DNA of 32,000 nt, taken from assembly GCF_008000775.2 (NCBI RefSeq), contig NZ_CP042905.2, positions 2,910,001 through 2,942,000 on the forward strand, read 5' to 3'. Under the pieces are notes generated by a model. That model was not told where the DNA came from, did no database searches, and saw only the letters and a program-made list of their open reading frames with translations. The DNA is from Promethearchaeum syntrophicum (GTDB lineage Archaea; Asgardarchaeota; Lokiarchaeia; Sigyniarchaeales; Promethearchaeaceae). Each line of letters starts with the position of its first letter. Within the stretch, counting starts at the first letter, position 1. Both the position numbers and the translations under genes were made by a program. Positions 2,561-29,737 of the stretch are shown here, piece after piece.

Positions 2561-5500
2561 TCAATCTTTTTTTGGTTTTTTTGATTTTTTCTTAGGTAAT
2601 TCTTTAATCTTTGGTTTTCTTAGATATCTAATTTTCTTAGGTTTTTGATCCTTTGAAATTGGTTGAAGATCGCCATTTTCGATATCATTAGGTTTTACAA
2701 ATTGATCAGGTTTTAGTTTCTCAATTTTCTGGATTGGTCCTACCTTTTTAGGTTGTTCAGCTTTAGGTAATTCCAAATTTTCCTCTAAACTTGATAGTTT
2801 TCCTTCGATATCAAGTTTCTTTTCTACCTTCGGAATTTTAGGAGTTTTCTTTTGTGATTCTTTTATTGGGGGTTTTTCACCACTAAAATTCTTCTTTACA
2901 TCTCCCTTAGTTATTGATTTTTGATCACTTATGGGAATATGATGAACTTTCAATAATGATTTGTTTCTTGAAGGTAAGGTACCTTTCGTTCTTATTTTAT
3001 AATCTTCAATAAATAATTCATCAGCATTCTTCACGGAAAGTACTTTTTCAGCTCCCTTTCCTTTGGATATTGCTTTATTTAAACTTCTAATTTCTCGAAT
3101 TATTTTTGGATATTTAAAGTGCTGTTGATATGCTATAAACATACCTATCAACCCAACCATTAAAACTCCCATGATATAGAGGAGAAATGCAGGTATTCCT
3201 CCTTCTTGGGGGGCAATCACATTTAAAGTCATTTGAAATTTCTGAAAATTATAATTTCCCCCTTCCTTATAGACAAAAATATCAATTGTATAAATTCCTT
3301 CTTGAATATTTCTCAAATTTGTCGAATATTCACCAGGATTAGATTCTTCCATTTCACCTTCACCATATTTCCATGTGAACGTAACCTCACAACCTTCTAC
3401 ATATCCCCCATAATCTAAATCTTCGATGAATATCGTAGGATCAAAATTTCTTCCCGGTAAAATAGTAAAACTATTATTTTGATTAATTGAGGTGATATTG
3501 GTTTCAATTTGTCGAATTTTTATTTCATTTAATATGGTTTTTTGCTCAAACCCATATTTACTAGCAGTGATTTCTATTGAATAAATTTGATTCACACCAG
3601 TATTGGTATTATTGCAATGAATTTGATAATCCCCATTATTAATTTCATTAACGATGAAATTATCTTCCCAAGTTACGTCAATATTACAACCAGTTATTCC
3701 TAGTCCTGAAGTTTCTTCTTTAAAATTTAGATTTATAATAAAACTCTGATTCAGTGCTACAGTTAATCTGGGAAATTCTTCAACATCCAATATTGTCTTC
3801 AATTCAACTTCAACAACAATATTACTTGATGTACTTGCATAAAGAGGATGACTAGCTTCAATATTTAATGTATTATTTCCAGGATTTATGGAAGGTGCTG
3901 TGAGTTCTGTGAAATAATATCCCGGAGCAATTTCATTCAATGTTTGTAAACCATTTGTCAAATTCAAGAATGTCAAAGTTGCCGATTCAATAGCTTCTCC
4001 GGAAACAATATCAAAGAAATTAATTCGTAAAGATGTTGTAGATCCCTCAATAAAATGGTCGATAAAATCATCATCAGGAATTAAAATGGAATAGTGTTTA
4101 ATAGTTATGTGTGTATAGGCCATGCCAGTTTCATTAATTGGGTTGATACCATCAGTGTTATTCCACGAAACAAAGACATCATAATCGCCCACAATATAGT
4201 CTGGACCATTTTCAGGAATTTGAATTGGACTAAACTGAATTGTTCCATCAGCTAATACAGCAATTTCTTCTGATTTAGAAATCCATTTAGTTCCGTTTGG
4301 GAAAAATATATCAAGGTTTGCATGGGTGCTGGATAAATCAGTAAAATTGACTCCTGAAGTTTTAACTTGAGCAGTGATGTTTAGGTATTCGCCAGAGAAG
4401 TAAGTGTTATTCACGCTCCAATCACTTGGACCGGGAGTACCTGTTGTATTTTTTGATGTAACAAGATTTTGGATATAATTTGGAGATTGTGCATTGAATT
4501 TCCAAAAACCATCTGGTGTTGCTGAAAGATTGTTTACGGGGATTATTAATTGACCAGGTTTAGAAATATCACACTCTGTGATATTATTATCTGTTGGTAA
4601 TTGCGGTGTCGAAACCCAAGTAATTGTCCAATCACTTGGAAAATAAAGTGTAAAATTTTCTTCAGCATACCCAGTCGGAACTGAAAAATACGAATAAAAT
4701 TCCCAATTTGCGTCTGAAGCATTTGCAATGGAAAAAGATGTACCAGGTGATCCAGAATTTGTTTCATAATTTGTTGTAGGACTTGTTTTTTGGGCATATA
4801 AATTAAAATCAGAATTAAAATCAACTGTGTAATCGTAATATGGACTATCATCTGCAGTAAAATTAGCATAAACTGGTGTTGTGGTCCAGCTACTAAGTTG
4901 TGATATTGTTCCCACACCAAAATCAGAGGATAAAATAGAATTTGTGTTCATTTTCAATCCAATTTGTTCAGCTTTTACAGAAGCTTTTACTTCTAATTCA
5001 ATATTTGCTAAAAATACTTGTTGGTGCGAGATATGTGTAAAACCATCTGAGTAACTAGCATCTGTCGCAATATATTGTAATCTTACTGCAATTGAATGAC
5101 TCGTTTCATTAAGTTGAGAAGTAAAAACATTAGTTGTATTTACCCAAATCCCCATTGGAATACTAAAATCATGCCATAGGGATTCTCCATAATTTTTCAA
5201 TGAATAAGTCCCAATAGAATAAATCATAACCGTATCGACATAAAATCTGATTTCCCAAGAATTAAAATTAGCTAAATAATTTGGATTTGCTTGAAAATTT
5301 AAATTTGAATCTTCTATTTGACCTCTATCAATATTAAAAGTGGAATTCCATTGACAGTAGTCTCCTTCATGATAGGAATAATAACCCGCCAACTGTGCAG
5401 CATTACCTTCCATGACTAACTCCAACGCATCTCTTCCTGTCGATGATGCTGAATCATAATAATTTCCAGACATCAAATTAGCAGTTCCGGTATCAATATC

Positions 5501-5998
5501 TGAAAATGTCCAATTTTGGAAAGAATTCTGAATATCCACACTATCATCTTCAGTGAATAGATAGGTTCCGTCATCGTTCCCATAATTAAATGTCCCATTT
5601 ACCCAATTTCTGGTGTCTCTTAAATTAGTAATATCAGAATTTAATTTAGTACCTTCCCAATTTTCACCTAATGGTATTTGGTGCGATGCTTGACTCCCAT
5701 TTGTGAATGTTAAATCTATATCTGAATCAGTTCGGTTAGCATTATGTAGTAAATCCAATGATTGCCCGATTCCAGTATATTCATCAACTAAAATATCCGA
5801 GGAAACTGGAGAATCAATAATTTGAACGTTTTTGCTGATATCGTTTGAATCTGATTTTTTCTCAAAAGAATTGGACAAATTATCAACTTTAAAAACTAAG
5901 AAAAAAAATAAAAACCCTACAATAATTAAAGTTTTTAATTTTCTCTCAGTCTTTCCTTTCGACTTAATTTTTCTATTTCTTACATTTATCTTGTTCAT
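2561..5998 (-). CDS. giant surface protein A2: signal anchor, N-x-S/T-rich ectodomain, single TM, 188-aa Lys/Pro/Glu-rich cytoplasmic tail
   Basis: 1145-aa ORF. Its ATG overlaps the upstream stop (ATGA at 5998-5995). It has an N-terminal hydrophobic anchor (LKTLIIVGFLFFFLVF), more than 20 N-x-S/T sequons by eye, and a TM helix (IPAFLLYIMGVLMVGLIGMFIAY). The juxtamembrane motif YPKIIREIRSLNKAISKGK follows the TM. The tail is paralogous to that of the upstream gene. Confidence 0.85.
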   Translation of the reverse strand: MNKINVRNRKIKSKGKTERKLKTLIIVGFLFFFLVFKVDNLSNSFEKKSDSNDISKNVQIIDSPVSSDILVDEYTGIGQSLDLLHNANRTDSDIDLTFTNGSQASHQIPLGENWEGTKLNSDITNLRDTRNWVNGTFNYGNDDGTYLFTEDDSVDIQNSFQNWTFSDIDTGTANLMSGNYYDSASSTGRDALELVMEGNAAQLAGYYSYHEGDYCQWNSTFNIDRGQIEDSNLNFQANPNYLANFNSWEIRFYVDTVMIYSIGTYSLKNYGESLWHDFSIPMGIWVNTTNVFTSQLNETSHSIAVRLQYIATDASYSDGFTHISHQQVFLANIELEVKASVKAEQIGLKMNTNSILSSDFGVGTISQLSSWTTTPVYANFTADDSPYYDYTVDFNSDFNLYAQKTSPTTNYETNSGSPGTSFSIANASDANWEFYSYFSVPTGYAEENFTLYFPSDWTITWVSTPQLPTDNNITECDISKPGQLIIPVNNLSATPDGFWKFNAQSPNYIQNLVTSKNTTGTPGPSDWSVNNTYFSGEYLNITAQVKTSGVNFTDLSSTHANLDIFFPNGTKWISKSEEIAVLADGTIQFSPIQIPENGPDYIVGDYDVFVSWNNTDGINPINETGMAYTHITIKHYSILIPDDDFIDHFIEGSTTSLRINFFDIVSGEAIESATLTFLNLTNGLQTLNEIAPGYYFTELTAPSINPGNNTLNIEASHPLYASTSSNIVVEVELKTILDVEEFPRLTVALNQSFIINLNFKEETSGLGITGCNIDVTWEDNFIVNEINNGDYQIHCNNTNTGVNQIYSIEITASKYGFEQKTILNEIKIRQIETNITSINQNNSFTILPGRNFDPTIFIEDLDYGGYVEGCEVTFTWKYGEGEMEESNPGEYSTNLRNIQEGIYTIDIFVYKEGGNYNFQKFQMTLNVIAPQEGGIPAFLLYIMGVLMVGLIGMFIAYQQHFKYPKIIREIRSLNKAISKGKGAEKVLSVKNADELFIEDYKIRTKGTLPSRNKSLLKVHHIPISDQKSITKGDVKKNFSGEKPPIKESQKKTPKIPKVEKKLDIEGKLSSLEENLELPKAEQPKKVGPIQKIEKLKPDQFVKPNDIENGDLQPISKDQKPKKIRYLRKPKIKELPKKKSKKPKKD

Positions 5999-8016
5999 TT
6001 TTCATCAGTTTTATTTTTTGGTAAATCTTCAACTTTTGGTTTTCTTAGATATCTAATTTTTTTTGGTTTTTGTCTCATTGATATGGGATTAAGATCACTT
6101 TCTTCGATATTATGAGGCTTTACAAATTGATCGGGTTTTAATTTCTCAATTTTTTGGGTTATTATTACTTTTTTGGGCAGTTCAGCTTTAGGTAATTCCA
6201 AATTTTCCTCTAAGCTCGATGGTTTTTTAGAAATTTCTGGTATTTTTACCTCTTTTGATATTTTAGGAGTGATTATTTCTTTTTCTTTTAAAAGTGCTTC
6301 TTCAACTTTTAACTCTTTTTTAACATCTCCCTTAGTTATTGACTTCTGAACACTTTCTCGAACCCCACGACCTTTCAAATTTGTTTCATTTATTGAAGTC
6401 ACGGATCCTTTTGCTTTGGCAATATAATCCTGAACAAATAAATCATCAGATATTTTCACAGATAACACTTTTTCAGCCGCTTTTCCTTTACGTATAGCTT
6501 TTCCTAAACTTCTAATTTCTCGAATAATTTTTGGGTATTTGAAGTATTGTTGATAGGCAACAAATGAGGTAATTAATCCAACAATAATAAAACCCATAAT
6601 ATAAAAGACGAAATCTGGAATCGATTCCAAAACCGTTGGAATAGGAATATTTCGCTCTACCACTGTAAAAGATGTTGTTAAATTGACATTATCAAACGTT
6701 ACTGTTACATTTTCATTTAAATGAAAATTATCGGCAACAAATAATTGTAACTTCAGTGTTATATTTTCAGTTTCATCTATAAGAGTGGGAGATATGTCAA
6801 AATTTTCACGCTGGAAGGTTGAAGAGAATTCAGTTAATTTAATTGTTTTAGAAAGCAGAACTTGATTAACATAAACTCTGATTTCGGAATTTATAGATGA
6901 AGTAGGCCATAATGGAGAAATTTTATAGTCAAAATAAAGAGAAGCATTATTTATAATAAAAAATCCAACATCACCCAATTCATATTCACCGTTATCAATT
7001 TTATTACCTGTTTGATCCCATGATGCCGATGTTAATTGATCAATTTTCTTTTCATATGTAAATGTAAAATTTACATTTTTTATCCGTAGGTTATTCCAAT
7101 AATCATAATCGGTACCAGCATTATCTTCACAGAATATATCCATACCTAAAATAACAGTAAAGTTCTCCCAATCATGAGAAAAAACTGAAGATAAATAAAA
7201 TTTAATGTTATCTTCTAAAACCATGTTCATATATTTTTCAATTTCAAGAGTGTTGGTTACTGCATCAACATAATATCCCAATTCAGATGATTGGTAATAT
7301 GCAATTTCATAGATATTCTCTAATAATGGATCTGCAATTGATACATAAAACCTAACATGATCGTACACAAATCCTTGAGTGGTTTGAGTTTCCCCAGAAT
7401 ACACATTCGGATCAACATCAATATTAGAATTAACACTTGCATTAATTAATGCACTAACATTAGCAGATGTAATTTGATAATCCGACATATTATTAGGCAT
7501 TGTAAAATTTTGAACCCAAAGAACACTAGGTAATTGTCTAGGCCCTTCTCGCCAACTATGATTTGCCCAACACCCAAATTCATCCATTCCATAAGAATCT
7601 TGCAGAGAATTATATGGCCATTCTGGATAGGCAGGAAAAGCAGGATTATGGATTGCAGTCCAATTTGTACTATCTGGGATTCCACTTACATTTGAAAATT
7701 CGTAATTTTCTCCTATAACTATATTATTAGCTTGATCATTTTCTAAATATTGGTTGATATCTGAGACATCTCCGTCTTCTTCCATGATCCATGGAGAATA
7801 AGAAGGTTCAAAACTAAAATTAGGATCCATAACCATAAGTTTAGAGAAATCTGTTCTATTTTCTATGTAAGAATCCGCAGGTGTTTCAATTTCTAAAGCT
7901 TTTGAATTTCCTATAAAATTTGGGAGAATGATTAAACTAATAAGAATTCCTGATACAAAAATATAAAGAAGTAAGTGGTTTTTTAATTTTTTATTTTTCA
8001 AAATGCTTCCCCCCAT
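5995..8016 (-). CDS. giant surface protein A1 (paralogue of A2): signal anchor, sequon-rich ectodomain, TM, 185-aa conserved cytoplasmic tail
   Basis: The track ORF starts at TTG 8046. I prefer ATG 8016 (MGGSILKNKKLKNHLLLYIFVSGILISLIIL), which lies 2 nt after the TAA of the upstream gene. The TM (FVFYIMGFIIVGLITSFVAY) and the tail (YPKIIREIRSLGKAIRKGK...QKPKKIRYLRKPK) are roughly two-thirds identical to A2 by eye. Confidence 0.8.
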   Translation of the reverse strand: MGGSILKNKKLKNHLLLYIFVSGILISLIILPNFIGNSKALEIETPADSYIENRTDFSKLMVMDPNFSFEPSYSPWIMEEDGDVSDINQYLENDQANNIVIGENYEFSNVSGIPDSTNWTAIHNPAFPAYPEWPYNSLQDSYGMDEFGCWANHSWREGPRQLPSVLWVQNFTMPNNMSDYQITSANVSALINASVNSNIDVDPNVYSGETQTTQGFVYDHVRFYVSIADPLLENIYEIAYYQSSELGYYVDAVTNTLEIEKYMNMVLEDNIKFYLSSVFSHDWENFTVILGMDIFCEDNAGTDYDYWNNLRIKNVNFTFTYEKKIDQLTSASWDQTGNKIDNGEYELGDVGFFIINNASLYFDYKISPLWPTSSINSEIRVYVNQVLLSKTIKLTEFSSTFQRENFDISPTLIDETENITLKLQLFVADNFHLNENVTVTFDNVNLTTSFTVVERNIPIPTVLESIPDFVFYIMGFIIVGLITSFVAYQQYFKYPKIIREIRSLGKAIRKGKAAEKVLSVKISDDLFVQDYIAKAKGSVTSINETNLKGRGVRESVQKSITKGDVKKELKVEEALLKEKEIITPKISKEVKIPEISKKPSSLEENLELPKAELPKKVIITQKIEKLKPDQFVKPHNIEESDLNPISMRQKPKKIRYLRKPKVEDLPKNKTDEK

Positions 8017-8018
8017 TC

Positions 8019-10250
8019 TTATTGCTCTAAAACATTCTCTCTCCAAATTTTTAATCTCTTTGATAATATTTTCCTCTTGAAATCATCCATAAAGGGTTTA
8101 CCATGCAAATCATTTATCCAATTTGTTATATCTGATTCAGTTCGAGCAATATTGAGCTTTTTACTAATTAAAGTTTTGATATCCTCCAAACCACTAACAA
8201 GCGTTTTAGGATCACTAACATCTATCGATTTAGATATTTCTTCAATTTTATCAATTATATCCTGTACATCTCCAGAATCATGTTTCGGTGATTCTTTTTT
8301 AACCTTTTTCTCCTCAACAACCTTAAGTGGTTCTTTACTTTGAGAAGGAGTAGGTATAATTGAGGTATCTTTTTTCAATGCGGGACTGAAAGGATCAATT
8401 ACTACAGGTTTGTGTTTTTCTATGGGTTTTTGCCTATCTGCCTGTTTTTGCAAAGAACTTATTGCTTGTGCCCCCAAACCCCCTTTACTTGGCTCACTAG
8501 GTTTTTTCTTGGGTTCCACTGGAATTAAGCGGGGTTGTTCTGATTTTTTAATTGGCTCTTGTTTAATTGGTTTCTTTATAATATCCTTATGGGCACCCAT
8601 CCAAGCGTCTTCTAGGATAGGGACGAAAATTTTAATATGTTCAGTTAAAATACTCCCGATTCCTGCAACTTCCATTTTAAATCCAGATATTCCTCTATTT
8701 ATCTTTATAATACTCAAAATTATCTCTTCATAATCTCTACTTACTCCCCAAAGATTTTGAAGCTTCCGATCTCTGTACGTAATATTATCCACTGAATCAA
8801 AGAATGCCATTTTTTGTTGATGAATAGGATCATCCGGATAAATAGAGCAGCATAATCTGATATTTATATGGTTTCGGACGTGCTTTAGAGGTTCAATATC
8901 AATATCGGAAAGCGTTGGTGCTACAATTAATATCCGCATTTTGGCTCTTGATATTGCATCATTAATTTGAGCCTGCATTCCTTCGGGAGTTTTTATAAAC
9001 CACACATCTTGCATGGTGAAATTAACTACCCGTTTCGATTCATCCCAAAATTCATCAATAGTCGCCGTGCTTAGATCTAATTGCTTTACAATTTTTCCTA
9101 AAATATCATCTAAGGTTATAACTACCTCATCTGAAAATGTGCTTCGTAAATCACCAAATGATTCATTTACTGTATTCGATATGTTCACAATTCTATCTTG
9201 CGTTTGAGTTAAAGTTGCATCAAATTGAGTAATGATAGAATCAAAAGATGTATGTAATTTATCTCCAATTGAATCCGCGTTAGAGGTAATTTCGGTAATA
9301 TCTTCAAGCAAGGTATCCATAATATTTCTAAACTTAGATTCAAATTCTGCTTGAAGTTCACTCCTTATGATTTCCATTTGATTATCAATATTCTTTTGAA
9401 CGACATCTTCTACTGTTTTTATTACAACACCAAGATGCAATTTTTCAAGATTAGTTGTGATTTTCTTAGAGACGATTTCAAATTGATTAAATAAATTTAC
9501 AAAATGTATATCTAGGAGAGAAATACTCTGATCACGCAAATCTTTAATACCCATAATCACTTTTTGTTGTTCCATTAGATTATGTAAACTATTATCAAGC
9601 ACTGTTCTTTGAGAGGATAATTGTTTGGAAACATCTGTTTTCATTTGATTTAAGTAGTCTATAAATTCGCTAAGAGTTTTAGCACCCTTACTACTTTCTT
9701 CAAAGGACATAAAAGAAGTTTGAAGGTCAGTCGGAGTAGACATCTTCATTGCAGCGATCATATTTCTAAATTTATCCAATTGGGCCATAAGGGCAGCGTA
9801 AGGAGGTAATGCTTGAAAATAAACAGTAGATCCCGGAATTTCTTTAAATAATCCTTTTTTTACGAATTTATCAGTAATTATTTTTATTTGTTCTATAGGG
9901 TGATTTGCGAGTATAGATAATTCTCCTAAAGACATCGGACCTTTTCCACTGGCCATAAAATAGAGTTGGATTTCTTCTTCACTTAATTCTATGCTCTTTA
10001 AAACTTCTTGGGTGAATTTCGTTGATTTTGGTTTAGTATCCGATTTCACTTCTTCTATTTCGAAAGAATCGACATTAAAACCTTTATTTATCGAAATGGT
10101 TAATTTATGGGCAGGCATGCCATGAATGTTTTCTAATTTTACTGGAAATTGAGCGTGTTCCATTGCTTTTCTATCTATTGGAAAAATTATATCTTTTAAG
10201 CAATGTTTACATCGAAAAGTAATTTCTTTCGGAATTTTGTGGATGTTCAT
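8019..10250 (-). CDS. TrmB-like winged-helix / long helical coiled-coil protein with PLD-like C-terminal module and Lys/Pro-rich linker
   Basis: The track ORF starts at TTG 10271. I prefer ATG 10250, which is preceded by AGGTGA (TAAGGTGAATTATATG) 10 nt after the upstream stop. The wHTH segment LSEEEIQLYFMASGKGPMSLGELSILANHPIEQIKIITDKFVKKGLFKEIPGSTVYFQALPP matches the TrmB HTH pattern. About 250 aa of heptad-like helical sequence follows. The segment WFIKTPEGMQAQINDAISRAKMRILIVAP resembles the PLD-like C-domain of TrmB-family proteins. Confidence 0.6.
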   Translation of the reverse strand: MNIHKIPKEITFRCKHCLKDIIFPIDRKAMEHAQFPVKLENIHGMPAHKLTISINKGFNVDSFEIEEVKSDTKPKSTKFTQEVLKSIELSEEEIQLYFMASGKGPMSLGELSILANHPIEQIKIITDKFVKKGLFKEIPGSTVYFQALPPYAALMAQLDKFRNMIAAMKMSTPTDLQTSFMSFEESSKGAKTLSEFIDYLNQMKTDVSKQLSSQRTVLDNSLHNLMEQQKVIMGIKDLRDQSISLLDIHFVNLFNQFEIVSKKITTNLEKLHLGVVIKTVEDVVQKNIDNQMEIIRSELQAEFESKFRNIMDTLLEDITEITSNADSIGDKLHTSFDSIITQFDATLTQTQDRIVNISNTVNESFGDLRSTFSDEVVITLDDILGKIVKQLDLSTATIDEFWDESKRVVNFTMQDVWFIKTPEGMQAQINDAISRAKMRILIVAPTLSDIDIEPLKHVRNHINIRLCCSIYPDDPIHQQKMAFFDSVDNITYRDRKLQNLWGVSRDYEEIILSIIKINRGISGFKMEVAGIGSILTEHIKIFVPILEDAWMGAHKDIIKKPIKQEPIKKSEQPRLIPVEPKKKPSEPSKGGLGAQAISSLQKQADRQKPIEKHKPVVIDPFSPALKKDTSIIPTPSQSKEPLKVVEEKKVKKESPKHDSGDVQDIIDKIEEISKSIDVSDPKTLVSGLEDIKTLISKKLNIARTESDITNWINDLHGKPFMDDFKRKILSKRLKIWRENVLEQ

Positions 10251-10260
10251 ATAATTCACC

Positions 10261-11535
10261 TTATACTCCAACTTTCTCCCAGTATGTATTTTCTAATAAT
10301 TCCAAAGCAATCTGCGCAATTTCCTTTGTTATTGGTGAAACTAATGAAGTTTCATCAATTGCACCCCATCTTAAGGAAGAGCGATCTTTAATTTTGGGTA
10401 ACAAAAATTCAGGAAATGTCGATAGAAAAGAGATTTCAGCCATCACACAAATCCAGTTTCTCCCTTCTCCATCTTTTATTAATTTCACAATACCTACTTC
10501 GAGTAGTTTCTTTAAAACATCATCAAGTTGAGCAAAATTTGATAAAACATTTGGGAGCTTCTTTACAGGATAGGCTTTTGTATTCAATAAAGCAAGTAAA
10601 TCAAAAATATCAGGATCTAAAATAATTTTTGCTAATTTTTCACTTTCTCCATAAAGATCAGTAAATGGATCATATGTAGCGTAATAATTATTTAATTCTT
10701 CAAAATATTGTTTATGGATTTCATGTTTTTTCATATCGGCCATTAATTCTTTTGGAGGGATCCGTATCAACGAAAGATCTTTTAGCAAAAACAAGTATTC
10801 CCCTTCACCGTGAACCCTCCCTGTGTCTTTGCTGTGAACCCCTCTTGCCCAATCCCTTCTGACTATATTCATCTCAAGAAAGGGTTTTAAAATAATATCC
10901 ATATTAGGATTCTTTTTGACTCGATCTATTAGCGATCTTAGTTTAATTCTGGAAAGTGGTCCTTCTTTTAATAGCTTCAACGTCATCATTCGTTCATAAC
11001 TTGAAAAGATCAAAGCAATTTTCTGAATTTTTGTTAAATTTGATAAGCGTTCGATTTGAAATAAGGCAAATTTTACTTGATTCAGCATTTCTCTTTCTAC
11101 TTCTCTTAAAACTTGTGCGGTTTTACTACTTTTAGCAAGTTTATTAAAAATTTTACCCAATTTCTCACACATCTGATAAAATACACCTTCATAGAGTTCA
11201 ACATCGTCGTCCAAAGCAAATAATGCTAAGATTAGGTACTGACTCTCATCAATTGAATGGTGATAATATGAGAGTACTCTGTATGGGGTTTCTTTAAGTC
11301 TTCCTAAAATGAAATTCTTTATCATCCGCTCGCGTTTTTTAAAATCCAATCCTGTGGTGTGATTATAGAATAATCTATACTTATCATTTTCAGTAATTAG
11401 ATCGTTTAAGTCGATCTTTTCCTTTTCGGTGCCGGTCCCAGGCATTTCAGAAACTAAATTTTTAAATTCGGGCTCAATATCCCCCGTTTCATCTTGATTT
11501 AGTTCAAATTGAAAAATTGTAATTGTAACAACCAT
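10261..11535 (-). CDS. longin-like alpha/beta N-domain + tandem winged-helix protein (paralogue of 24261..25340)
   Basis: 424-aa ORF with an ATG start; it is the first gene of operon A. Blocks EYLFLLKDLSLIRIPPKEL and NWICVMAEISFLSTFPEFLL align by eye with TYVFLLKYLICFRAPPLDL and QVYFLKSDIILDFVPMNYMI of the 359-aa protein. WH-like segments include TLKLLKEGPLSRIKLRSLIDRV. Confidence 0.55.
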   Translation of the reverse strand: MVVTITIFQFELNQDETGDIEPEFKNLVSEMPGTGTEKEKIDLNDLITENDKYRLFYNHTTGLDFKKRERMIKNFILGRLKETPYRVLSYYHHSIDESQYLILALFALDDDVELYEGVFYQMCEKLGKIFNKLAKSSKTAQVLREVEREMLNQVKFALFQIERLSNLTKIQKIALIFSSYERMMTLKLLKEGPLSRIKLRSLIDRVKKNPNMDIILKPFLEMNIVRRDWARGVHSKDTGRVHGEGEYLFLLKDLSLIRIPPKELMADMKKHEIHKQYFEELNNYYATYDPFTDLYGESEKLAKIILDPDIFDLLALLNTKAYPVKKLPNVLSNFAQLDDVLKKLLEVGIVKLIKDGEGRNWICVMAEISFLSTFPEFLLPKIKDRSSLRWGAIDETSLVSPITKEIAQIALELLENTYWEKVGV

Positions 11536-11723
11536 TGTAATTTACCTTATATAATATTTTTACATTAATTCTATCATGGAATAGAATTTTGTTTTATATC
11601 TTATATGTCGACCTTTGTTCATAATAAGCCTTTGTTAATAATAATCAAAAAAAAAAATCAATTAATAAGCTTTTAGTATATAATTATTAGGAAAGAAATA
11701 AAAATCAAAGATAAGAGTTTAAA

Positions 11724-13536: not shown

Positions 13537-14724
13537 CTATTTTAATATTGAGAACCCTGAAGGTAGTTTGTGAGTTAGTCGCTGTGAGATTACGTTCAAG
13601 AGATGATTTTCTGGAGAAAAGTTTGATTCGAGTAGCTGGCGTACTTCGTATCCTCCTTCCCAGCCGAGTCGTTCGATATCACCTTCTGATAGGGATTTGG
13701 GATTTTCAATATATTGTTGGGCGAGTTCCATGGGGGTTTTACTGTAAAATTCGACGATGGCATCATATTTGGCAGGATCTTTAATCATTGCATGAGTTAT
13801 AAGTTCGTCGGTGCTCATGTTTACTTTATAGGTTTCCTGTCGGATTTTTTTATCGTGATAGTCGTCGATGAGTTTAATCGCAATCGGACATAGTTGAAAA
13901 TTTTTATAATAATCTTCATAATGTATGATTCTTTTGAAAAAATCGGGAAATTTGATGCCGGAGAGTGTGCGGATGGGATTGTTCCACACGAAAATTTCAA
14001 TATTTCTTTCCAGTTTTATGGAGTGCGGATTTCGAATCAATTTTTGTTTATCACGATCCGAAAGGTATCTTTTGTTAAATTTCGATGGGAGGTGCTCCAG
14101 CGATGTGATTTGATTATAAAAAACATTCAATTTCTTAAGGAACGGTATTTCAGACGGTATTCCTTTCAAGGAAATGAGCTTGTTGCGGACCAAATGTATC
14201 TCTTGAAGAACGGGAGCATTTGCAGGAAAATATTCGAGGGTTTCGATGTTAGTTCTAGTTATTCGGATTGTTTTTAATCTTGGGATCGATTTGGGCATAT
14301 ACTTGATAGATTCTAAGGGAACATTATCGATTTTGAATCTCTCTAACGATGGAAGTTCGTACGGGATACCTTTTAAATTTTTAAGGGAAGAGCTGACAAC
14401 GGTTAGGTTTTTTAATTTAGGGAGATTTTTGGGCAATCCAATTAGGTTAGGAAATTCTTGATTACGGATAAATAGAACTTCAAGATTCGGGAGATTTTCG
14501 GGCATGCCTTTTAAATTTCCGAATTCTATTTTGGGATGATAAAAAAGGTTAACAATAACACATTCAGGGGATTCTAAGATGATAACAGATCTTCGCAAAT
14601 TTTCGTGTTTTTCTTCACACCTGAAGGTTTTTAAATTTGAAGACTTAGGATTTTCATTGGTTATCAGTAGTTTTCTGGTATCCTCAGTGATTTCATGCCA
14701 AATATTACTACTCATTTTCTTCAT
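13537..14724 (-). CDS. leucine-rich repeat (LRR) protein with non-LRR C-terminal domain
   Basis: 395-aa ORF with an ATG start. It has about 8 consecutive ~22-aa LRR units (e.g. LPNLEVLFIRNQEFPNLIGLP, LPKLKNLTVVSSSLKNLKGIP, IPFLKKLNVFYNQITSLEHLP). The C-terminal ~130 aa are unrelated and more GC-rich. Confidence 0.8.
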   Translation of the reverse strand: MKKMSSNIWHEITEDTRKLLITNENPKSSNLKTFRCEEKHENLRRSVIILESPECVIVNLFYHPKIEFGNLKGMPENLPNLEVLFIRNQEFPNLIGLPKNLPKLKNLTVVSSSLKNLKGIPYELPSLERFKIDNVPLESIKYMPKSIPRLKTIRITRTNIETLEYFPANAPVLQEIHLVRNKLISLKGIPSEIPFLKKLNVFYNQITSLEHLPSKFNKRYLSDRDKQKLIRNPHSIKLERNIEIFVWNNPIRTLSGIKFPDFFKRIIHYEDYYKNFQLCPIAIKLIDDYHDKKIRQETYKVNMSTDELITHAMIKDPAKYDAIVEFYSKTPMELAQQYIENPKSLSEGDIERLGWEGGYEVRQLLESNFSPENHLLNVISQRLTHKLPSGFSILK

Positions 14725-20470: not shown

Positions 20471-21034
20471 ATGATACGTCAAGTAAAACAATTCCAAGCT
20501 GAAGCGTTAATTAATTCCGAAACATATCGCAATTTTGTCCAAAAAACCCAATCTGAAATACTTAGGGGAATCTCTACTGTGGTTGTGCTCAAGATTATTA
20601 ATTCTCACGCTAAGGAAGGAATTTATGGTTATCTTTTATTACGCGAGTTGGAAGAATCAACAAAAAAAACACTCGTGATAGAAGAGGGAACACTCTATCC
20701 TTTACTAAAGAAGTTAGAAAAGGAAAAAGTAATTCGATCTGAACGAAAAGATGTTCAGGGGCGATCTCGTAAATATTATTTTATTACCCCTGAAGGTCAG
20801 AAAATTCAAAACCATTTAATGGGATTCTTTTCAAAATTGGTTGAATCGATGAGTGATTTAATGGATATCAATGTAGATTTACCGCAGAAAAATGTTCTTT
20901 TTTGCCCTAATTGTGCTAATCGAATCGATCTAAAGGATCCTGATTCTCATTTCTGTGAAGTATGTGGATTGAATATTCAGAATTTAAGGTTTGTTCCCAA
21001 AACAAATAATGAAAATGGAGATGAAATATTATGA
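20471..21034 (+). CDS. PadR-family transcriptional regulator with C-terminal zinc-ribbon
   Basis: It carries the classic PadR wHTH signature (GYLLLRELEE...EEGTLYPLLKKLEKEKVIRSERK...RKYYFITPEGQK) and a C-terminal CPNC...CEVC motif. Confidence 0.85.
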   Translation: MIRQVKQFQAEALINSETYRNFVQKTQSEILRGISTVVVLKIINSHAKEGIYGYLLLRELEESTKKTLVIEEGTLYPLLKKLEKEKVIRSERKDVQGRSRKYYFITPEGQKIQNHLMGFFSKLVESMSDLMDINVDLPQKNVLFCPNCANRIDLKDPDSHFCEVCGLNIQNLRFVPKTNNENGDEIL

Positions 21035-22194
21035 ATAGATATAATTATATTATTGACGATTTTCTAAAAAAAGTGAAGGAAAAACTACCTTCATGGATTC
21101 GGGAAGATAAAAAAGAATGTACCGATATTTTAGAAGAAATGGAAGAACATATTTTGGATCTTGCTCAAGAATTGGCAGGAGGTCCAGAAGAAGAGGCCGA
21201 TATAGAAAACATTCGCGAAGCTATTGCCCGGATGGGATCTCCTGAGGAAATTTCAAAGGAATATAAAAAAAGAGGAACTCCGAAGTATTATTTAACGGAA
21301 GAATGGATTCCTTGGTATAAAAATGTATTAGGTATAGTTATAGGCGTAATAATGGCAATAAATGTGATAACCCTAATATTTTCAATCGATGATGGGGAAA
21401 GTTTTTGGGAGATAGCATTAGGTTTCCTCAATGGATTATGGGGGTCAACTCTATTTTCATTCATCATAATCAGTGTTATTTTCATTGCGTTATCAATGGA
21501 AGGCTTTATGCCCCATGATTTTGCAGAAATGTACAATAAATATGGTAAATATGTGGAAAAAGAACCCAGTAAAACGAAGAGAGGAACACACGGTCATCAT
21601 TTTCAACGGGAAATGGAGAGAGTTGAACGTGATCTTCATAGGGTAGAAAAAACAGTTGAAAAAGCCACAAAAGAAGTGGAGAGAGCAAAAGCAACAGTAT
21701 CAGTGAAAATTCAAAAGAAAACTAAAAGAAAACCACCAATTAAGGTTGGAGACTGCTTGGCGAGCGGAATATTTGGAATATTATGGGGTTTGTTCCTGAT
21801 AATGCAACCAATTGAAAGTTTTAATGTGAACTTCACTCCAGAATTCTTAGAATTTGTGAGATTTATGGGTACCCTAGCTTTCAGTGAAGCAATAATTAAC
21901 CTTTTCCAAGCATTTGCGGGAATCTCTCGGTCATTTACTCAACAAATATTACTCTTCCTCTTAGGTATTGTGCAAGTATTGAATATTTTAGTCTTTGTCA
22001 GCGCTCTTAAAAGCCCAGAAATTCTTTCAATGTTCTCACTTGCATCAGGTTGGACTTGGGACCCAACTACAGTGTTTAAAATTTTGATGTATATATCTAT
22101 ATTCGGAACAGGAATTGACATCCTTAAAAAGTTGGGCGATATTGGGATGTATCAAGGCCGTTTAGAAAGATATTATGTTGAAACTTTTGATTAA
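21031..22194 (+). CDS. DUF1700/HAAS-like membrane protein partnered with PadR
   Basis: Its start overlaps the PadR stop (ATGA). The N-terminal helical domain ends in MGSPEEISKEY, typical of DUF1700 proteins. Multiple TM helices and a central charged coiled segment follow. Confidence 0.7.
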   Translation: MNRYNYIIDDFLKKVKEKLPSWIREDKKECTDILEEMEEHILDLAQELAGGPEEEADIENIREAIARMGSPEEISKEYKKRGTPKYYLTEEWIPWYKNVLGIVIGVIMAINVITLIFSIDDGESFWEIALGFLNGLWGSTLFSFIIISVIFIALSMEGFMPHDFAEMYNKYGKYVEKEPSKTKRGTHGHHFQREMERVERDLHRVEKTVEKATKEVERAKATVSVKIQKKTKRKPPIKVGDCLASGIFGILWGLFLIMQPIESFNVNFTPEFLEFVRFMGTLAFSEAIINLFQAFAGISRSFTQQILLFLLGIVQVLNILVFVSALKSPEILSMFSLASGWTWDPTTVFKILMYISIFGTGIDILKKLGDIGMYQGRLERYYVETFD

Positions 22195-22268: not shown

Positions 22269-23357
22269 TTATAATTTTGCGAAAAATTCAGTTTGGGTTT
22301 TTCCTGCTTCAATATGAAGCCCTTGTTGTACGAATTTTTTCATTCCAAGCCATGGAATGATATCGGCGTTATTTGAATCATGGAAAATAGTAGAATTTGC
22401 AAGCATTGGTATTTTATTAAAATCCCGTTTCAACCTTTGGAGGAAAGCAGGAAATTTTGAAGAGCCCCCAATTACAATAATTGAAGCAAATAACTCTCTT
22501 CGGAGAGAAGGAGGAGTTTCTTTCAAAGTTTCAATTAATAATTGATCTACTGCCATATTTTTGTTATTTCCGAGGAAAGGTTTGAATAAGAATTCAGGTA
22601 CAAGTATTTTTTCTATTCCAACAATGATTGATTCATTAAAATTGGGAATATTTATTGTTTCTTTTAATGCTTCTACAAGGATTTTTGATTGTAAAATTTC
22701 ATTAAAATTCTCAACAAAATGGGTTTTAGTAGTTTTAATCTCTTCCACTAATTGTTGAAACTGTTTGTTTTTAATCGGTGTAAATTTCGTTCGAAGTAGT
22801 GATAAGAGATATTCAGATAGATGTTTCCCAGCTAGTTCTGATGATTTAACTGAATTTCTGATGGGTTGTCGTTGTTGATATTGAATAGCTCTAGTTTGAT
22901 CATACCCGAGATCCAATACTGTGCAATTTTCTAAATCATAAAAATATACACTAAACTTACTACTTGGAGCATTCACAATTCTATATATATTAAATTGTTG
23001 AAACAGGAATGCTTTCACTGTGTTTATAGTTTCTTCAGACCATAATACTGGTGTACCTAAAATTAATGTTGAATTCTCGAGAATAGAAGAGAACCGACCA
23101 AAAATAAACAATAAAAAATTTTTAAATATTTCTTCTTTGTGAAATTGCTTGGAAGAAAAAATGTCTTTAATTTCCAAAATTCCTTGGTAGGAGAAAATTT
23201 TCTGATCAAATTTATGATTTTCAAAATCAGGTGAGGTTACTGATGTAAACCGTGGAATTCCCACTTTACTTGTAAATTTTAAGGGATACACATCGTTATA
23301 GGTATTAATTTTTGCGAATCCTGTTCCTAAATCGACTAATATTACATCATCACTCAT
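22269..23357 (-). CDS. divergent actin-family ATPase (actin-related protein, ARP-like)
   Basis: 362 aa. It is collinear with eukaryotic actin by eye. Phosphate-1 is ILVDLGTGFAK (actin: VCDNGSGMCKAG) and phosphate-2 is TVLDLGYDQT (actin: IVMDSGDGVT). LAGKHLSEYL matches LAGRDLTDYL, and IIVGIEKILVPEFLFKPFLG matches [21 protein letters not shown]. The adenosine motif is IIVIGGSSKFPAFLQRLKRDF. GGAGGT lies upstream of the ATG. Confidence 0.85.
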   Translation of the reverse strand: MSDDVILVDLGTGFAKINTYNDVYPLKFTSKVGIPRFTSVTSPDFENHKFDQKIFSYQGILEIKDIFSSKQFHKEEIFKNFLLFIFGRFSSILENSTLILGTPVLWSEETINTVKAFLFQQFNIYRIVNAPSSKFSVYFYDLENCTVLDLGYDQTRAIQYQQRQPIRNSVKSSELAGKHLSEYLLSLLRTKFTPIKNKQFQQLVEEIKTTKTHFVENFNEILQSKILVEALKETINIPNFNESIIVGIEKILVPEFLFKPFLGNNKNMAVDQLLIETLKETPPSLRRELFASIIVIGGSSKFPAFLQRLKRDFNKIPMLANSTIFHDSNNADIIPWLGMKKFVQQGLHIEAGKTQTEFFAKL

Positions 23358-24237
23358 TTATATTACCTCCTGTCCTAGTTCCGAGAATTGTAGATCGGAT
23401 GAACTTTTGTAAGTTTCTATACTGATCCTCTCCGTTTGCAAATTCAAAAATAGGAATTTTTAGAATTAAAGATAAATTTTCGGATAAAATCATATGATCA
23501 TGCTTGAAAGTTATTCCGTAAATCTTTAAATTTGGTTGATTTTGACGAATTTTGAATAATTTAGGGAGAGTGTAGGCAATAAAATCCATATTTGGTTCGA
23601 TTAAAATATAAGCAAAATTTTTGTTTTCCAATAATTGATACATCAATTTTTCATTCTCTATATCAATATTCCAAAATTTAACATCACAATTTGTAAGACC
23701 ATGATCCACGAATTTGAAGATATTTAAATTTTCTAAATTTGATAACTCAGAATCTGACACAGATTGGGAAGATCTTGGAGAATTTTTTGATAGAAAATGC
23801 CAGAAATCTTGCTTTATTTGTGATTGAGGACTAATAATTCCAATATCTAAAGATGTGTTACAGATTTTTAAAACAATTTCATCATAAGGATTGAACTCTT
23901 CCATAGAAAAAATTTCGCGAACTTTGATATGACCAAACTTCTCCAAAAATAGGTTCTTCAGTTCGAAAATTATATCATTGATCAGTTCTAGATTGTCATA
24001 TTTATTCACAAATAGAATTATCGAAACCTCATTATTTAAAAAAGAAGCTATATGCATTTCCAATTCAGACATCTGTAACATTTCAATTTTCTGCTTATAA
24101 TGAGTTAATTGTGCAGAAAATGCATCAATTGCAGTTGTAAATCCCCCTATTAATTGATAATCTACTCTTGTATCAGTAAAACTATGATTATAAATGCAAA
24201 TTCCTACATTCGTGATAACCATTACTTGATGAATCAT
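23350..24237 (-). CDS. longin-like domain fused to a degenerate Ras-like (pseudo-GTPase) domain
   Basis: 295 aa. The N-terminal ~105 aa has a TRAPP/sedlin-like longin pattern (VMVITNVGICIYNHSF...QLIGGFTTAIDAFSAQL...MHIASFLNNEVSIILFVNK). The C-terminal ~170 aa follows small-GTPase strand/helix order, with VKFWNID for WDTAG and ITFKHD for NKxD, but it has no GxxxxGK[ST] P-loop. AAGGAG lies upstream of the ATG. Confidence 0.45.
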   Translation of the reverse strand: MIHQVMVITNVGICIYNHSFTDTRVDYQLIGGFTTAIDAFSAQLTHYKQKIEMLQMSELEMHIASFLNNEVSIILFVNKYDNLELINDIIFELKNLFLEKFGHIKVREIFSMEEFNPYDEIVLKICNTSLDIGIISPQSQIKQDFWHFLSKNSPRSSQSVSDSELSNLENLNIFKFVDHGLTNCDVKFWNIDIENEKLMYQLLENKNFAYILIEPNMDFIAYTLPKLFKIRQNQPNLKIYGITFKHDHMILSENLSLILKIPIFEFANGEDQYRNLQKFIRSTILGTRTGGNINE

Positions 24238-24260
24238 TTTAAAATTCTTTCTCCTTTATA

Positions 24261-25340
24261 TCAGTGAGATTCTAGATAGTTTTCTTTTAATATCGAAATA
24301 TAGCTTAAAAGAAGTTTATCGGGTTTTCTATCCTCAACATGCATATTATAGATCTGATTGATCATGTAGTTCATAGGAACAAAATCCAGAATAATATCGG
24401 ATTTTAAGAAATATACTTGTTCTTCATTTTGATCAACTACAATATCAACAATATCACTATTAATCAAATTATTGACTAAATTCATAACTTGATCGACACC
24501 GTGTAACTTTAGTTTCGTTAAAGAGCTGTGTTTGGCATAAGATTTCCTAAGAAAGTCAATAATGACCCAATAATTAGTTTGTCGTATATAACCGGCAATT
24601 TCAATATTGTCTTGCTCATTTGGCACATATTTCTTAAAGAAATCTCGAATTTTTTTTAAAATCTTTTGATTTAGTTCATTATCTTTCGCTATTTTTATCT
24701 TTTGGGATAAATCTAAAGGAGGTGCCCGAAAACATATAAGATATTTCAACAGAAAGACATAAGTGCCATCAACTCCACGCACGATAGAGGTTTTTAATAT
24801 ATCATTTTGGACTAACCCATCTATAATATATTCAAAGTTATATAATTTGGTCTTAAGGATATCCTCCAACCAAATTTTCAATTCATCCCGATAAAAACAA
24901 CCTTCTTCACTTAATGTTTTGAATATAGCCCGATTAAGATTACTCCCATACATCATTGCTCTACGTTGTTCGAGATTCGTGCTTGGAAATTCGGTACATC
25001 GCTGATAAATTGAAGGTAATAACGTATTAAAGGTATCTTCTTCAATAAAAGGTATTAAATAATATAGAAGATCGGAGATAACTTCCTTGTAATCCTCAGG
25101 TTGTTCTTCAATGGTTAGTAAAAGCGATAAGAAATAGTTATGTGTCGATCCTGTCCATACGGAGATAATATTTAATGCGCCCACATACATGGAAACAATA
25201 TCAGATTGCGCCCCGTAAAGGTGTTGAGAATATAGTTGCATCATAGTCTTATCCGATACATCTAATTCTTTTGGATATTTTCCTAACTCTTCCGCTCCCG
25301 AACGGTAATCCCATCTCCAAAGAATCATACCTATAGGCAT
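24261..25340 (-). CDS. longin-like N-domain + tandem winged-helix protein (paralogue of 10261..11535)
   Basis: 359 aa. Its ATG overlaps the stop of the upstream giant gene by 1 nt (TAATG) and is preceded by GGAGGAG. The N-terminus has a beta-beta-alpha-beta-beta-beta-alpha pattern (IGMILWRWD..GAEELGKYP..MMQLYSQHLYG..IVSMYVGALNIISVWTG..YFLSLLLTIEE..). Two WH-like units align with the 424-aa protein. Confidence 0.5.
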   Translation of the reverse strand: MPIGMILWRWDYRSGAEELGKYPKELDVSDKTMMQLYSQHLYGAQSDIVSMYVGALNIISVWTGSTHNYFLSLLLTIEEQPEDYKEVISDLLYYLIPFIEEDTFNTLLPSIYQRCTEFPSTNLEQRRAMMYGSNLNRAIFKTLSEEGCFYRDELKIWLEDILKTKLYNFEYIIDGLVQNDILKTSIVRGVDGTYVFLLKYLICFRAPPLDLSQKIKIAKDNELNQKILKKIRDFFKKYVPNEQDNIEIAGYIRQTNYWVIIDFLRKSYAKHSSLTKLKLHGVDQVMNLVNNLINSDIVDIVVDQNEEQVYFLKSDIILDFVPMNYMINQIYNMHVEDRKPDKLLLSYISILKENYLESH

Positions 25341-29479: not shown

Positions 29480-29737
29480 GAAAAGCACCTTCTAATTGTA
29501 ATGAGCTACTTTCACCTATATATATTTATCTTATATTATATAATTTGATGGATGGTGGAGGATTATCCAGTGATGAGGTATAATAGATAGATTATCTTTT
29601 TGTAATGTTTCTAAACTATTTTTTTCGTGTTTCCAAACAAGGTTACATCAAAAACGATTAATAAAAACAATTATATAAATAAGTTTACACTTTCACGCAT
29701 CTATATATATAATCATATTTCTTCCTTCATCATAAAA

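Follow-up and report, generated by a model that had tools for sequence, protein, structure and literature searches.

A 32,000-nt stretch of the genome of Promethearchaeum syntrophicum (contig NZ_CP042905.2, forward-strand positions 2,910,001 to 2,942,000; referred to below as the window) carries a four-gene operon, operon A, that encodes a cytoplasmic protein with a longin-type and two winged-helix (WH) domains (gene 1, the adaptor), a protein derived from the TrmB/TrmBL2 family (gene 2) and two predicted surface proteins with a common membrane anchor (genes 3 and 4). Judged from sequence and predicted structure, operon A very probably belongs to a modular family whose core is a large surface protein and a cognate longin-WH protein that docks on its tail. 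The core is taken to be invariant and its partners to vary, since every adaptor clade examined adjoins tailed giant membrane proteins: the partner is the TrmB-like protein in version A and a ~285-aa protein plus an actin homologue in version B, none is found nearby in version C, and rare fusions carry SIR2-like and TPR domains or helix-hairpin-helix (HhH) domains. For operon A as a whole we prefer, with a probability of about 0.42, the reading that gene 2 encodes a dimeric, acidic, rod-like scaffold that would organise the basic tails of a surface-protein array. Searches of the literature by locus tag and by concept returned no description of the cassette, which is undescribed and conserved across Lokiarchaeia; its kind is known (a membrane receptor with a cytoplasmic adaptor), and it is built from unannotated families.

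Recurrence of the gene linkage

Relatives of the operon-A adaptor (A type) were surveyed in one genome per species; 139 relatives were found, and 79 loci from 78 species-level genomes were analysed. The TrmB-like gene lay directly after the adaptor gene in 62 of the 68 loci with enough downstream sequence, with gaps of 6-35 nt in loci other than that of the window. Each of the 32 loci with 6 kb or more of upstream and 9 kb or more of downstream flank encoded at least one anchor-bearing protein; the hidden Markov model (HMM) of the anchor was built from these same loci, so that the counts state presence and are not an independent prediction. The linkage is kept at 40% protein identity and with different flanking genes. 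The surface genes form arrays of one to five, mostly with ectodomains of ~450-490 aa of the gene 3 type, some of them fused pairwise; in the Promethearchaeum/Lokiarchaeum branch, including the window, their position is downstream of the adaptor.

In the B type, the order surface protein, adaptor, ~285-aa protein and actin homologue was found in the window and in all loci obtained by three independent look-ups (L085-L089); the family of its 359-aa adaptor is small, with 24 sequences. A third and larger type, C, was obtained by a metagenome scan with an 11-sequence alignment from the largest B-like adaptor group, which returned 80 loci. Here the adaptor abuts a giant protein with a transmembrane (TM) segment and tail (1200-1900 aa where complete) in 69 of the 74 testable cases, frequently as tandem giant-adaptor units in which each giant gene has an adaptor gene of its own. 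Homologues of the TrmB-like, actin and 295-aa proteins were not found near the C-type loci; the genes downstream of them (RuBisCO-like, leucine-rich-repeat, aminotransferase and glycosidase) were rejected as partners and ascribed to synteny of housekeeping genes. Conserved anchor and adaptor were thus adjacent or fused in each version (32/32 A-type loci, all B-type loci fetched and 69/74 C-type loci, with 47 bits for the anchors of genes 3 and 4). Further adaptor copies therefore do stand beside tailed giant membrane proteins, and the original prediction, which had argued for a modular family rather than a chance neighbourhood, is upheld by the recurrence of the linkage in 78 species-level genomes.

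Among the A-type loci were some from metagenome-assembled genomes (MAGs) labelled Hod-, Hermod-, Thor- and Odinarchaeota (L017, L020, L024, L032, L043, L044, L057, L062, L065, L067, L079), with adaptors ~40% identical to the Lokiarchaeal ones, which is also the identity of the latter to each other. Either the cassette is not confined to Lokiarchaeia or the labelling of these MAGs differs.

The longin/winged-helix adaptor

In the AlphaFold2 (AF2) model of gene 1, made from a 30-sequence alignment (pLDDT 85.9, pTM 0.79), residues 1-165 adopt a beta-beta-alpha-beta-beta-beta-alpha topology (DSSP: E2-14, E20-30, H43-61, E75-79, E86-93, E99-106, H112-135), followed by two WH domains (H169-221 with E225-259, and H324-347 with E350-373). 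The top Foldseek matches in the PDB were FNIP2 (FLCN complex), the Lokiarchaeal Roadblock-Longin protein 8YQG, sedlin of TRAPP (SEDL), Ykt6 and Sec22b; the longin matches had probabilities of 0.7-1.0, with E-values of only 0.01-0.2. The remaining matches were ArsR-type winged helices (HlyU, CadC, SrnR, NolR), with target template-modelling scores of 0.53-0.64 and probabilities of 0.96-1.0. In the model, the N-terminal part thus has the topology and fold of solved longins, and each of the two following domains has a three-helix bundle, a beta-hairpin wing and a fold match to winged helices, so that the term longin/WH adaptor, originally given from the sequence, is appropriate. No sequence-level family match was obtained for gene 1 in Pfam or NCBIfam, a search of the PDB with the adaptor profile was also empty, and a hydropathy scan predicted no TM segment. 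The 217 homologues of gene 1 are all from Asgard archaea where named, mostly from Promethearchaeota, and one of them bears the annotation ArsR-family regulator in one source. WH1 and WH2 have isoelectric points (pI) of 10.2 and 9.3; their presumed recognition helices are composed of D/E and hydrophobic residues, not of basic ones.

The 424-aa product of gene 1 and the 359-aa adaptor of operon B, called paralogues by eye in the original prediction, matched in BLASTP with E 3e-7, and their family profiles aligned in hhalign with a probability of 98.8% and E 8.2e-17 over 297 columns; the 359-aa protein is therefore a true homologue of gene 1. The first hairpin differs between the versions. In A-type adaptors it reads FxFxLNQxxxGEIEPEF and is without the WD...GP segment discussed for GTPase-activating longins (PMC12290439). 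B- and C-type adaptors start with a near-invariant W-D-x-R-x-G hairpin, LWRWDYRSG in the window (24261-25340) and MKWDERIGTEIL elsewhere (A2, A7; P0282-P0306), and their W-D-x3-G spacing fits the WD...GP segment of the C9orf72 longin (PMC12290439). A GTPase-regulating role of the B- and C-type adaptors, beside the GTPase-like 295-aa protein of operon B, is conceivable from these features. For gene 1, neither a partner GTPase nor an Arg finger or GP motif, as in longin platforms with GTPase-activating or guanine nucleotide exchange activity (FLCN, Nprl2, C9orf72), was found; this speaks against membership in those platforms and not against a longin-type docking role.

Surface proteins with a shared anchor

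Hydropathy analysis predicted TM segments at residues 14-32 and 469-487 of gene 3, leaving a ~435-aa ectodomain and a 186-aa basic tail, and at residues 23-41 and 937-955 of gene 4, with an ectodomain of ~895 aa and a 190-aa basic, Lys/Pro-rich tail. In each protein the first is an N-terminal hydrophobic segment and the second the only C-terminal TM. The tails contain 24-27% Lys+Arg, and N-X-S/T sequons exceed expectation in both ectodomains (25 observed and 17 expected in gene 4, 15 and 7 in gene 3). By topology and composition, both products are predicted type-I surface glycoproteins. In proteomic work on P. syntrophicum, previously proposed S-layer candidates were not detected, high glycosylation was reported solely for a solute-binding protein, and genes 3 and 4 were not mentioned.

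The TM segment and 206-aa tail are 64% identical between genes 3 and 4 (E 2e-75), and no significant pairwise BLASTP similarity was found between the ectodomains. Recent gene conversion was rejected as the origin of the shared tails, since nucleotide identity in the common C-terminal region is 72.5% and that of third codon positions only 59%; the likeness is better ascribed to constraint. The gene 3 ectodomain belongs to the commonest class in the related loci (94, plus 24 mixed, of 138 ectodomain segments), and orthologues of the gene 4 ectodomain occur in L. ossiferum and other loci.

The conserved TM/juxtamembrane segment of A-type surface proteins is AYQKVLKYPKPVRKVRKYRK, with the anchor consensus AYQKVLKYPKPVRKVRKYRKTLKKKKSPDISIISREKAF..Y, in which conservation is strict at positions other than the charged ones too (YPK...AF..Y). 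The gene 3 anchor scored 47.4 bits against the juxtamembrane HMM from other Lokiarchaeal loci and, at the same position, 17.5 bits against the C-type HMM, which matched all three surface proteins of the window precisely at their TM/juxtamembrane segments. The tails of operons A and B had been said to carry the same motif. Compared directly, they gave a weak match (hhalign P 0.004, probability 7-8%), and BLASTP of the whole surface proteins was not significant; through the C-type intermediate, however, the anchor profiles were joined, with E 1e-6 (91%) between A and C and E 2.7e-14 (98%) between C and the operon-B type. The common motif thus holds by way of the intermediate and not by direct comparison, and each adaptor clade has its own accompanying form of a single, homologous anchor.

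Several observations concern the remainder of these proteins. Past the anchor, the tails (window 2561-3060 and 5995-6500, minus strand; L004 14169-19322) are Lys/Pro/Glu-rich and of low complexity, and one homologue ends in PKPAAESL / PKPVAKPL repeats. A C-terminal patch, I-x-[YF]-x-[RH]-[KR]-P-x-I-K-E-L, is common to both window tails and the L. ossiferum orthologue; it may provide a second docking site or make the tail bind nucleic acid or lipid. Single ORFs with two complete ectodomain-TM-anchor units, and with motifs at ~500 and ~1050 or at ~800 and ~1700, occur in a number of loci (L016, L021, L025, L030, L040, L043-L048, L056, L059, L062, L071, L077, L079), which suggests that neighbouring surface proteins fused head to tail in this way act together.

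The TrmB-derived protein

The AF2 model of gene 2 (pLDDT 70 overall, 80-90 in the folded domains) matched TrmBL2 (5BPD, E 5.6e-9), the sugar-binding domain of TrmB (2F5T, E 1.6e-5) and full-length TrmB (3QPH, E 5.9e-5) in Foldseek, and its phospholipase D (PLD)-like domain matched Nuc, Zucchini and F13 at ~1e-6, the range including NucT and PLD3 being 1e-6 to 1e-3. A family profile of the winged helix-turn-helix (wHTH) found TrmB 3QPH in the PDB over the entire domain (E 3.3e-4); the family profile was needed, as phmmer with the single gene 2 wHTH sequence found nothing there. Pfam TrmB (PF01978) matched 12 of 16 family members at E <= 0.1 (best 3.4e-8), and gene 2 itself scored 17.6-21.3 bits against a gathering cutoff of 25.6. 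With its wHTH, dimerisation helix and PLD-like effector-type domain in the order of TrmB, gene 2 is a genuine TrmB/TrmBL2 derivative, and the wHTH, PLD-like module and Lys/Pro-rich linker originally recognised in it are confirmed by model, fold search and profiles.

Canonical DNA reading by gene 2 is in doubt, because its recognition helix starts with EQIK (EEIK in the family consensus), at the position of NRVY in TrmB and PRTY in TrmBL2, and because its wHTH is neutral (pI 6.8). The catalytic motif HxK(x)4D of PLD and Nuc is absent from the PLD-like domain, whose sole H.K (H538-I-K540) lies in the C-terminal helix without an Asp at the required spacing; the fold is presumably non-catalytic, as in TrmB and TrmBL2.

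The ~250 aa of helices that had been described as heptad-like are present in the model (residues 151-408), and their heptad character is not borne out. Hydrophobic periodicity in the rod had a z of 0.1 at a period of 3.5, 4.2 at 3.6 and 5.4 at 3.67, so that a canonical heptad coiled coil was rejected. Among 28 family members the median best period was 3.69, and the heptad z exceeded 2.9 in 5/28 alone. The helical region spans 249-336 aa in proteins of 700-930 aa, contains almost no proline and has a median net charge of -11. Weak Pfam matches to Apolipoprotein (11-mer repeats; 11/30 members) agree with the non-heptad period; Baculo_PEP_C was weakly matched in 8/30. The C-terminal bundle did not resemble the helical domain in the tail of the operon-B surface protein. 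According to the original prediction, the surface-protein/adaptor core is reused with different cytosolic effectors, gene 2 being a filament-like coiled coil in place of the actin homologue. Reuse of the core is supported by adaptor homology, linkage and fusions; the filament-like coiled coil is not established, gene 2 being a TrmB/TrmBL2 derivative with non-heptad helices. Given the conserved palindrome and the conserved TACTTAAGAAAT/TATA box at the promoter, gene 2 may also be an ordinary transcription factor with a site upstream of the operon.

Fusion proteins and other adaptor architectures

A profile of both adaptor families gave 348 cluster representatives among 1.84 billion proteins. 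Single-chain fusions of 1330-2548 aa, consisting of an ectodomain, a TM segment, an anchor (e.g. YRVYKNAKIPNFVKKVRTMKKAIEG), a linker of ~70-90 aa and a complete adaptor, were found in eight separate 50%-identity clusters; that such a fusion has survived so much divergence is most readily understood if tail and adaptor are truly linked. Other architectures were also observed. P0388 and P0400 carry an adaptor with a C-terminal SIR2-like domain and TPR (PADLOC Aga_SIR2 2.6e-6, TPR 2.4e-8), an effector architecture otherwise typical of defence or NAD-depleting systems. P0350 and P0362 have three HhH repeat units followed by only the two WH domains, without the longin domain, and this variant may bind DNA. 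Further representatives have Lys/Pro/Glu-rich helical extensions. The 295-aa protein of operon B appeared by eye to consist of an N-terminal roadblock/longin-like part and a degenerate G-domain.

Organisation of operon A and other features

The product of gene 1 is identical to DSAG12_03152 of P. syntrophicum MK-D1, an Asgard archaeon from the phylum Promethearchaeota (previously Lokiarchaeota), and DSAG12_03151 is the next gene. The four minus-strand genes and their tight junctions, as originally described, were all confirmed in the sequence (Table 1). Gene 1 ends with TAA at 10263-10261, which a 10-nt gap separates from ATG 10250, with AGGTGA at 10261-10256 ahead of that start; the stop codon of gene 2 (8021-8019) is separated by 2 nt from ATG 8016 of gene 3; and genes 3 and 4 overlap in ATGA at 5998-5995. 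Public gene calls of 424 aa for gene 1 and 743 aa for gene 2 favour ATG 10250 over the upstream TTG as the start of gene 2. Archaeal terminators are oligo-T tracts, and the oligo-T runs past the last stop codon are likely where the operon transcript ends. Between operon A and a divergent DNA methylase gene lies an AT-rich spacer of 188 nt. A scan for sigma-70 promoters and hairpin terminators, which is not meaningful for an archaeon, showed no excess.

No GTPase gene was found among the four genes in the ORF list or by Pfam scan, and all four proteins are without a curated family assignment. A scan of the four with NCBIfam and PADLOC gave nothing except a sub-threshold LeoBC match of gene 2 (E 0.003); a defence-system reading was dropped on this near-empty result, though rare adaptor fusions carry SIR2-like and TPR domains.

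Table 1. Features of operons A and B in the window
Feature	Position	Strand	Basis or remark
Operon A gene 1, 424-aa cytoplasmic adaptor, DSAG12_03152	10261-11535	minus	ORF
Longin-type domain of gene 1, residues 1-165	11041-11535	minus	AF2 model and Foldseek
Winged helix 1 of gene 1, residues 166-270	10726-11040	minus	AF2 model and Foldseek
Winged helix 2 of gene 1, residues ~321-390	10366-10575	minus	AF2 model and Foldseek
Operon A gene 2, TrmB/TrmBL2-derived protein, DSAG12_03151	8019-10250	minus	743 aa from ATG, 750 aa from upstream TTG
CCHH beta-domain (Zn) of gene 2, residues 8-67	10050-10229	minus	AF2; C14, C17, H43, H48 nearly invariant
wHTH of gene 2, residues 78-147	9810-10019	minus	AF2, profile
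Acidic helical rod of gene 2, residues 151-408	9027-9800	minus	AF2
PLD-like alpha/beta domain of gene 2, residues 416-552	8595-9005	minus	AF2, Foldseek
Lys/Pro-rich disordered linker of gene 2, residues 560-658	8277-8573	minus	21% Lys, 15% Pro
C-terminal helical bundle of gene 2, residues 660-742	8025-8273	minus	AF2
Operon A gene 3, predicted type-I surface protein, 673 aa from ATG 8016	5995-8016	minus	ORF
TM and juxtamembrane anchor of gene 3, residues 465-530 (AYQQYFKYPKIIREIRSLGKAIRKGK)	6427-6624	minus	HMM
Operon A gene 4, predicted type-I surface protein, 1145 aa	2561-5998	minus	ORF
TM and juxtamembrane anchor of gene 4, residues 934-1001 (AYQQHFKYPKIIREIRSLNKAISKGK...ELFIEDY)	2996-3199	minus	47.8 bits, juxtamembrane HMM
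Oligo-T runs (T7 and T8)	2516-2537	minus	25-45 nt past last stop codon; read from sequence
Palindrome AATTCTAT-N6-ATAGAATT	11567-11588	.	~30-50 nt upstream of adaptor start codon; candidate operator by promoter
Operon B (paralogous cassette)	22269-29488	minus	ORFs
Operon B surface protein, 1382 aa	25340-29488	minus	tail matches C-type anchor HMM, residues 1224-1272, 35 bits
Operon B adaptor, 359 aa	24261-25340	minus	gene 1 homologue
Operon B 295-aa protein	23350-24237	minus	without Pfam assignment
Operon B actin-family protein, 362 aa	22269-23357	minus	Pfam Actin 9e-24

Between operons A and B, the window encodes a pair made up of a PadR-type regulator with a Zn-ribbon-like C-terminus and a membrane partner, a 387-aa HAAS-domain protein whose start the regulator overlaps (20471-22194, plus strand). 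Leucine-rich-repeat proteins lie nearby in the window (13537-14724, minus strand) and in a C-type locus (L105, 6566-7534, minus strand), which may be coincidence. In five A-type loci (L060, L072, L073, L078, L080), multi-TM proteins of ~124 aa with ...LGIPKGVK... are encoded 6-10 kb downstream of the adaptor; they are not homologues of the anchor.

Promoter DNA

The palindrome upstream of gene 1, AATTCTAT-N6-ATAGAATT, is invariant in four Promethearchaeum species (the window and three others), with diverged flanks; it matches once in the window, where 0.13 matches are expected, and among the loci it stands upstream of the adaptor only in the Promethearchaeum clade. In 31 of 36 main-clade loci, TACTTAAGAAAT lies beside a TATA-like AATTATATA at -55 to -76, the background frequency of CTTAAG being 0.175 per kb. 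Another palindrome, TTTAATTAAA, was observed ~20 nt upstream of TACTTAAGAAAT-AATTATATA (L014-L064, about -55 to -120 relative to where the adaptor begins), and L010 and L011 have TTGCATGGCAA instead. The intergenic DNA upstream of the adaptor is unusually conserved for genomes whose proteins are just ~40% identical to those of the window.

Proposed mechanism and alternative explanations

In the preferred mechanism, the adaptor would bind the anchor or the tail of a type-I surface glycoprotein. We infer this docking from the Rosetta-stone fusions, from the single adaptor abutting each C-clade giant and from the clade-matched variants of the anchor. In version A, the adaptor would recruit the TrmB-derived protein encoded 10 nt downstream; that the two are physical partners is rather likely from their genes. 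In the last and weakest step, the TrmB-derived protein would dimerise by its TrmB-type helices and PLD-like domain and form an elongated, acidic, non-heptad rod under the membrane, which would cross-link or organise the basic tails of the surface-protein array and thus be the counterpart of the actin homologue and the ~285-aa partner of version B.

A scaffold is favoured because the sister cassettes have non-DNA partners or none, because the recognition helix of gene 2 looks degenerate and because the protein consists mostly of rod, linker and bundle; the acidity of the rod, as against the basic tails, points the same way. Several points weigh against this. To our knowledge, every characterised member of the TrmB family binds DNA; gene 2 has conserved lysines in its recognition helix and wing (K128, K132 and K136), and its wHTH may still touch DNA. 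The surface genes are divergent from the adaptor/TrmB-like pair in 29/32 loci, a layout of the regulator-target type. WH1 of the adaptor is itself basic, which makes it difficult to say which surface would bind a basic tail, and the basic juxtamembrane segment could partly be a positive-inside topology signal. The conserved promoter palindromes, moreover, keep alive the main rival model, which we consider rather unlikely and in which the TrmB-like protein is a membrane-controlled transcription factor of the adjacent surface genes, sequestered or released by the tail-docked adaptor; the surface array would thereby exert feedback or outside-in signalling on its own promoter, in the Mlc-PtsG or ToxR manner. 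The TrmB/TrmBL2 fold and sequence signal of gene 2, its conserved lysines, the divergent layout, the palindrome shared by four Promethearchaeum species and TACTTAAGAAAT with its TATA-like box are what such a regulator can call upon. Set against them are the altered start and neutral pI of the wHTH, a Pfam TrmB score below threshold, and the presence, in a protein of 700-930 aa, of a rod of 250-340 aa, a disordered linker and an additional bundle, all superfluous for a regulator; the B and C cassettes, too, are without any DNA-binding partner, and the promoter elements may be operators, may serve any factor or may simply be a B recognition element (BRE) and TATA box.

It is improbable that the longin-WH protein is a biogenesis or retention factor that recognises the anchor of the giant for insertion, folding, localisation or turnover, without cytoplasmic coupling and with the TrmB-like protein as a co-chaperone or an unrelated protein. 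The pairing of one adaptor gene with each giant gene in frequent tandem units, the start/stop overlaps, which suggest stoichiometric co-translation, and the longin fold of the SRX domain of the signal recognition particle receptor fit such a factor. An adaptor fused C-terminally after the TM segment, however, could not act before insertion, one A-type adaptor serves arrays of 1-5 surface proteins, and the co-inherited TrmB-like protein and actin homologue would both be left unexplained. Still less probable is an absence of docking, both cytoplasmic proteins being soluble WH regulators near their target genes and the juxtamembrane motif a topogenic or lipid-binding signal: the ArsR-like folds and basic pI values of WH1 and WH2 and the ArsR-family annotation of a homologue would agree with it, but covalent adaptor-tail fusions in diverged lineages, the 69/74 adaptors abutting a giant gene in a clade without shared regulon context, the acidic and hydrophobic residues of the presumed recognition helices and the strict conservation of anchor residues past the charges would not. 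A chance neighbourhood, or synteny without functional link, is hardly credible. Most genes for eukaryotic signature proteins of Asgard archaea are not in conserved neighbourhoods (bioRxiv 10.1101/2020.10.19.343400), and nothing else speaks for it; the linkage persists in 78 diverged genomes with differing flanks, the genes stay together although their order is rearranged (divergent or co-directional), and surface-protein/adaptor fusions exist.

Relation to known systems

Gene 2 has the module order of TrmB and TrmBL2 (PDB 3QPH, 2F5T, 5BPD), i.e. wHTH, dimerisation helix and PLD-like alpha/beta domain. Unlike them, it has an additional N-terminal CCHH beta-domain, a Lys/Pro linker of ~100 aa and a C-terminal helical bundle, its family has helices expanded to 250-340 aa with a period of ~3.67, no second sugar-binding subdomain was detected in it, and its recognition helix starts with acidic or neutral residues; its family is, moreover, encoded after a longin-WH gene and near tailed surface proteins. 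Within the TrmB family, this architecture is new and greatly enlarged.

With FLCN/FNIP, Nprl2/Nprl3 (GATOR1), C9orf72/SMCR8, TRAPP sedlin and the Asgard 'NPRL2-like longin', gene 1 shares an N-terminal longin followed by helical or WH modules. The likeness is at the level of the fold only (Foldseek E ~1e-2), and gene 1 has no DENN domain, operon A no GTPase gene and the A-type hairpin none of the WD/GP-type motifs of longins that are GTPase-activating proteins; association with a surface-protein tail, the defining trait of the cassette, is not described for those families. Asgard genomes are rich in longin families (bioRxiv 10.1101/2020.10.19.343400).

By analogy only, the cassette resembles the small and medium subunits of the AP and COPI coats, which are longin folds, as well as integrin-talin and cadherin-catenin, in that a cytoplasmic protein would read a juxtamembrane motif and link it to machinery, such as the actin homologue of operon B. 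It differs in having no sequence or demonstrated structural relationship to them, no vesicle coat and no known cytoskeletal binding domain, and its docking is deduced from genes. With Mlc-PtsG and ToxR/CadC, operon A may share the principle of a wHTH protein kept at the membrane by a membrane protein's cytoplasmic portion, but it has an intermediate adaptor, a far larger wHTH protein and unrelated families. The resemblance to clustered protocadherins is likewise an organisational analogy: the arrays of 1-5 surface proteins have diverse ectodomains and a near-constant TM/juxtamembrane part, but are separate genes, not alternative exons, and belong to unrelated families.

Significance

Cultured Lokiarchaea have no ordered S-layer and possess complex surface proteins, and surface proteins on actin-supported protrusions are thought to mediate cell-cell contacts relevant to eukaryogenesis (PMC9834061). 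The cassette may show how the Asgard relatives of eukaryotes join the cell surface to the interior, and it offers testable candidates, namely the anchor on surface-protein arrays, a dedicated longin/WH protein and lineage-specific partners (an actin homologue or a TrmB-derived rod). If the docking is true, an archaeal longin domain would work on a membrane-protein tail, a finding that would bear on how the adaptor and trafficking logic of eukaryotes arose; should the TrmB-like protein instead be a regulator, the result would be a new kind of archaeal surface-to-gene feedback. A wider idea, which we regard as decidedly speculative, is that a surface anchor read by a longin adaptor is a prokaryotic forerunner of the eukaryotic cargo-tail or receptor-adaptor logic, with actin-family filaments (B) or a TrmB rod that tethers or controls DNA (A) as its outputs. 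Cryo-tomography has shown 'complex surface densities', and on this idea they would be physically tied to the cytoskeleton and the nucleoid.

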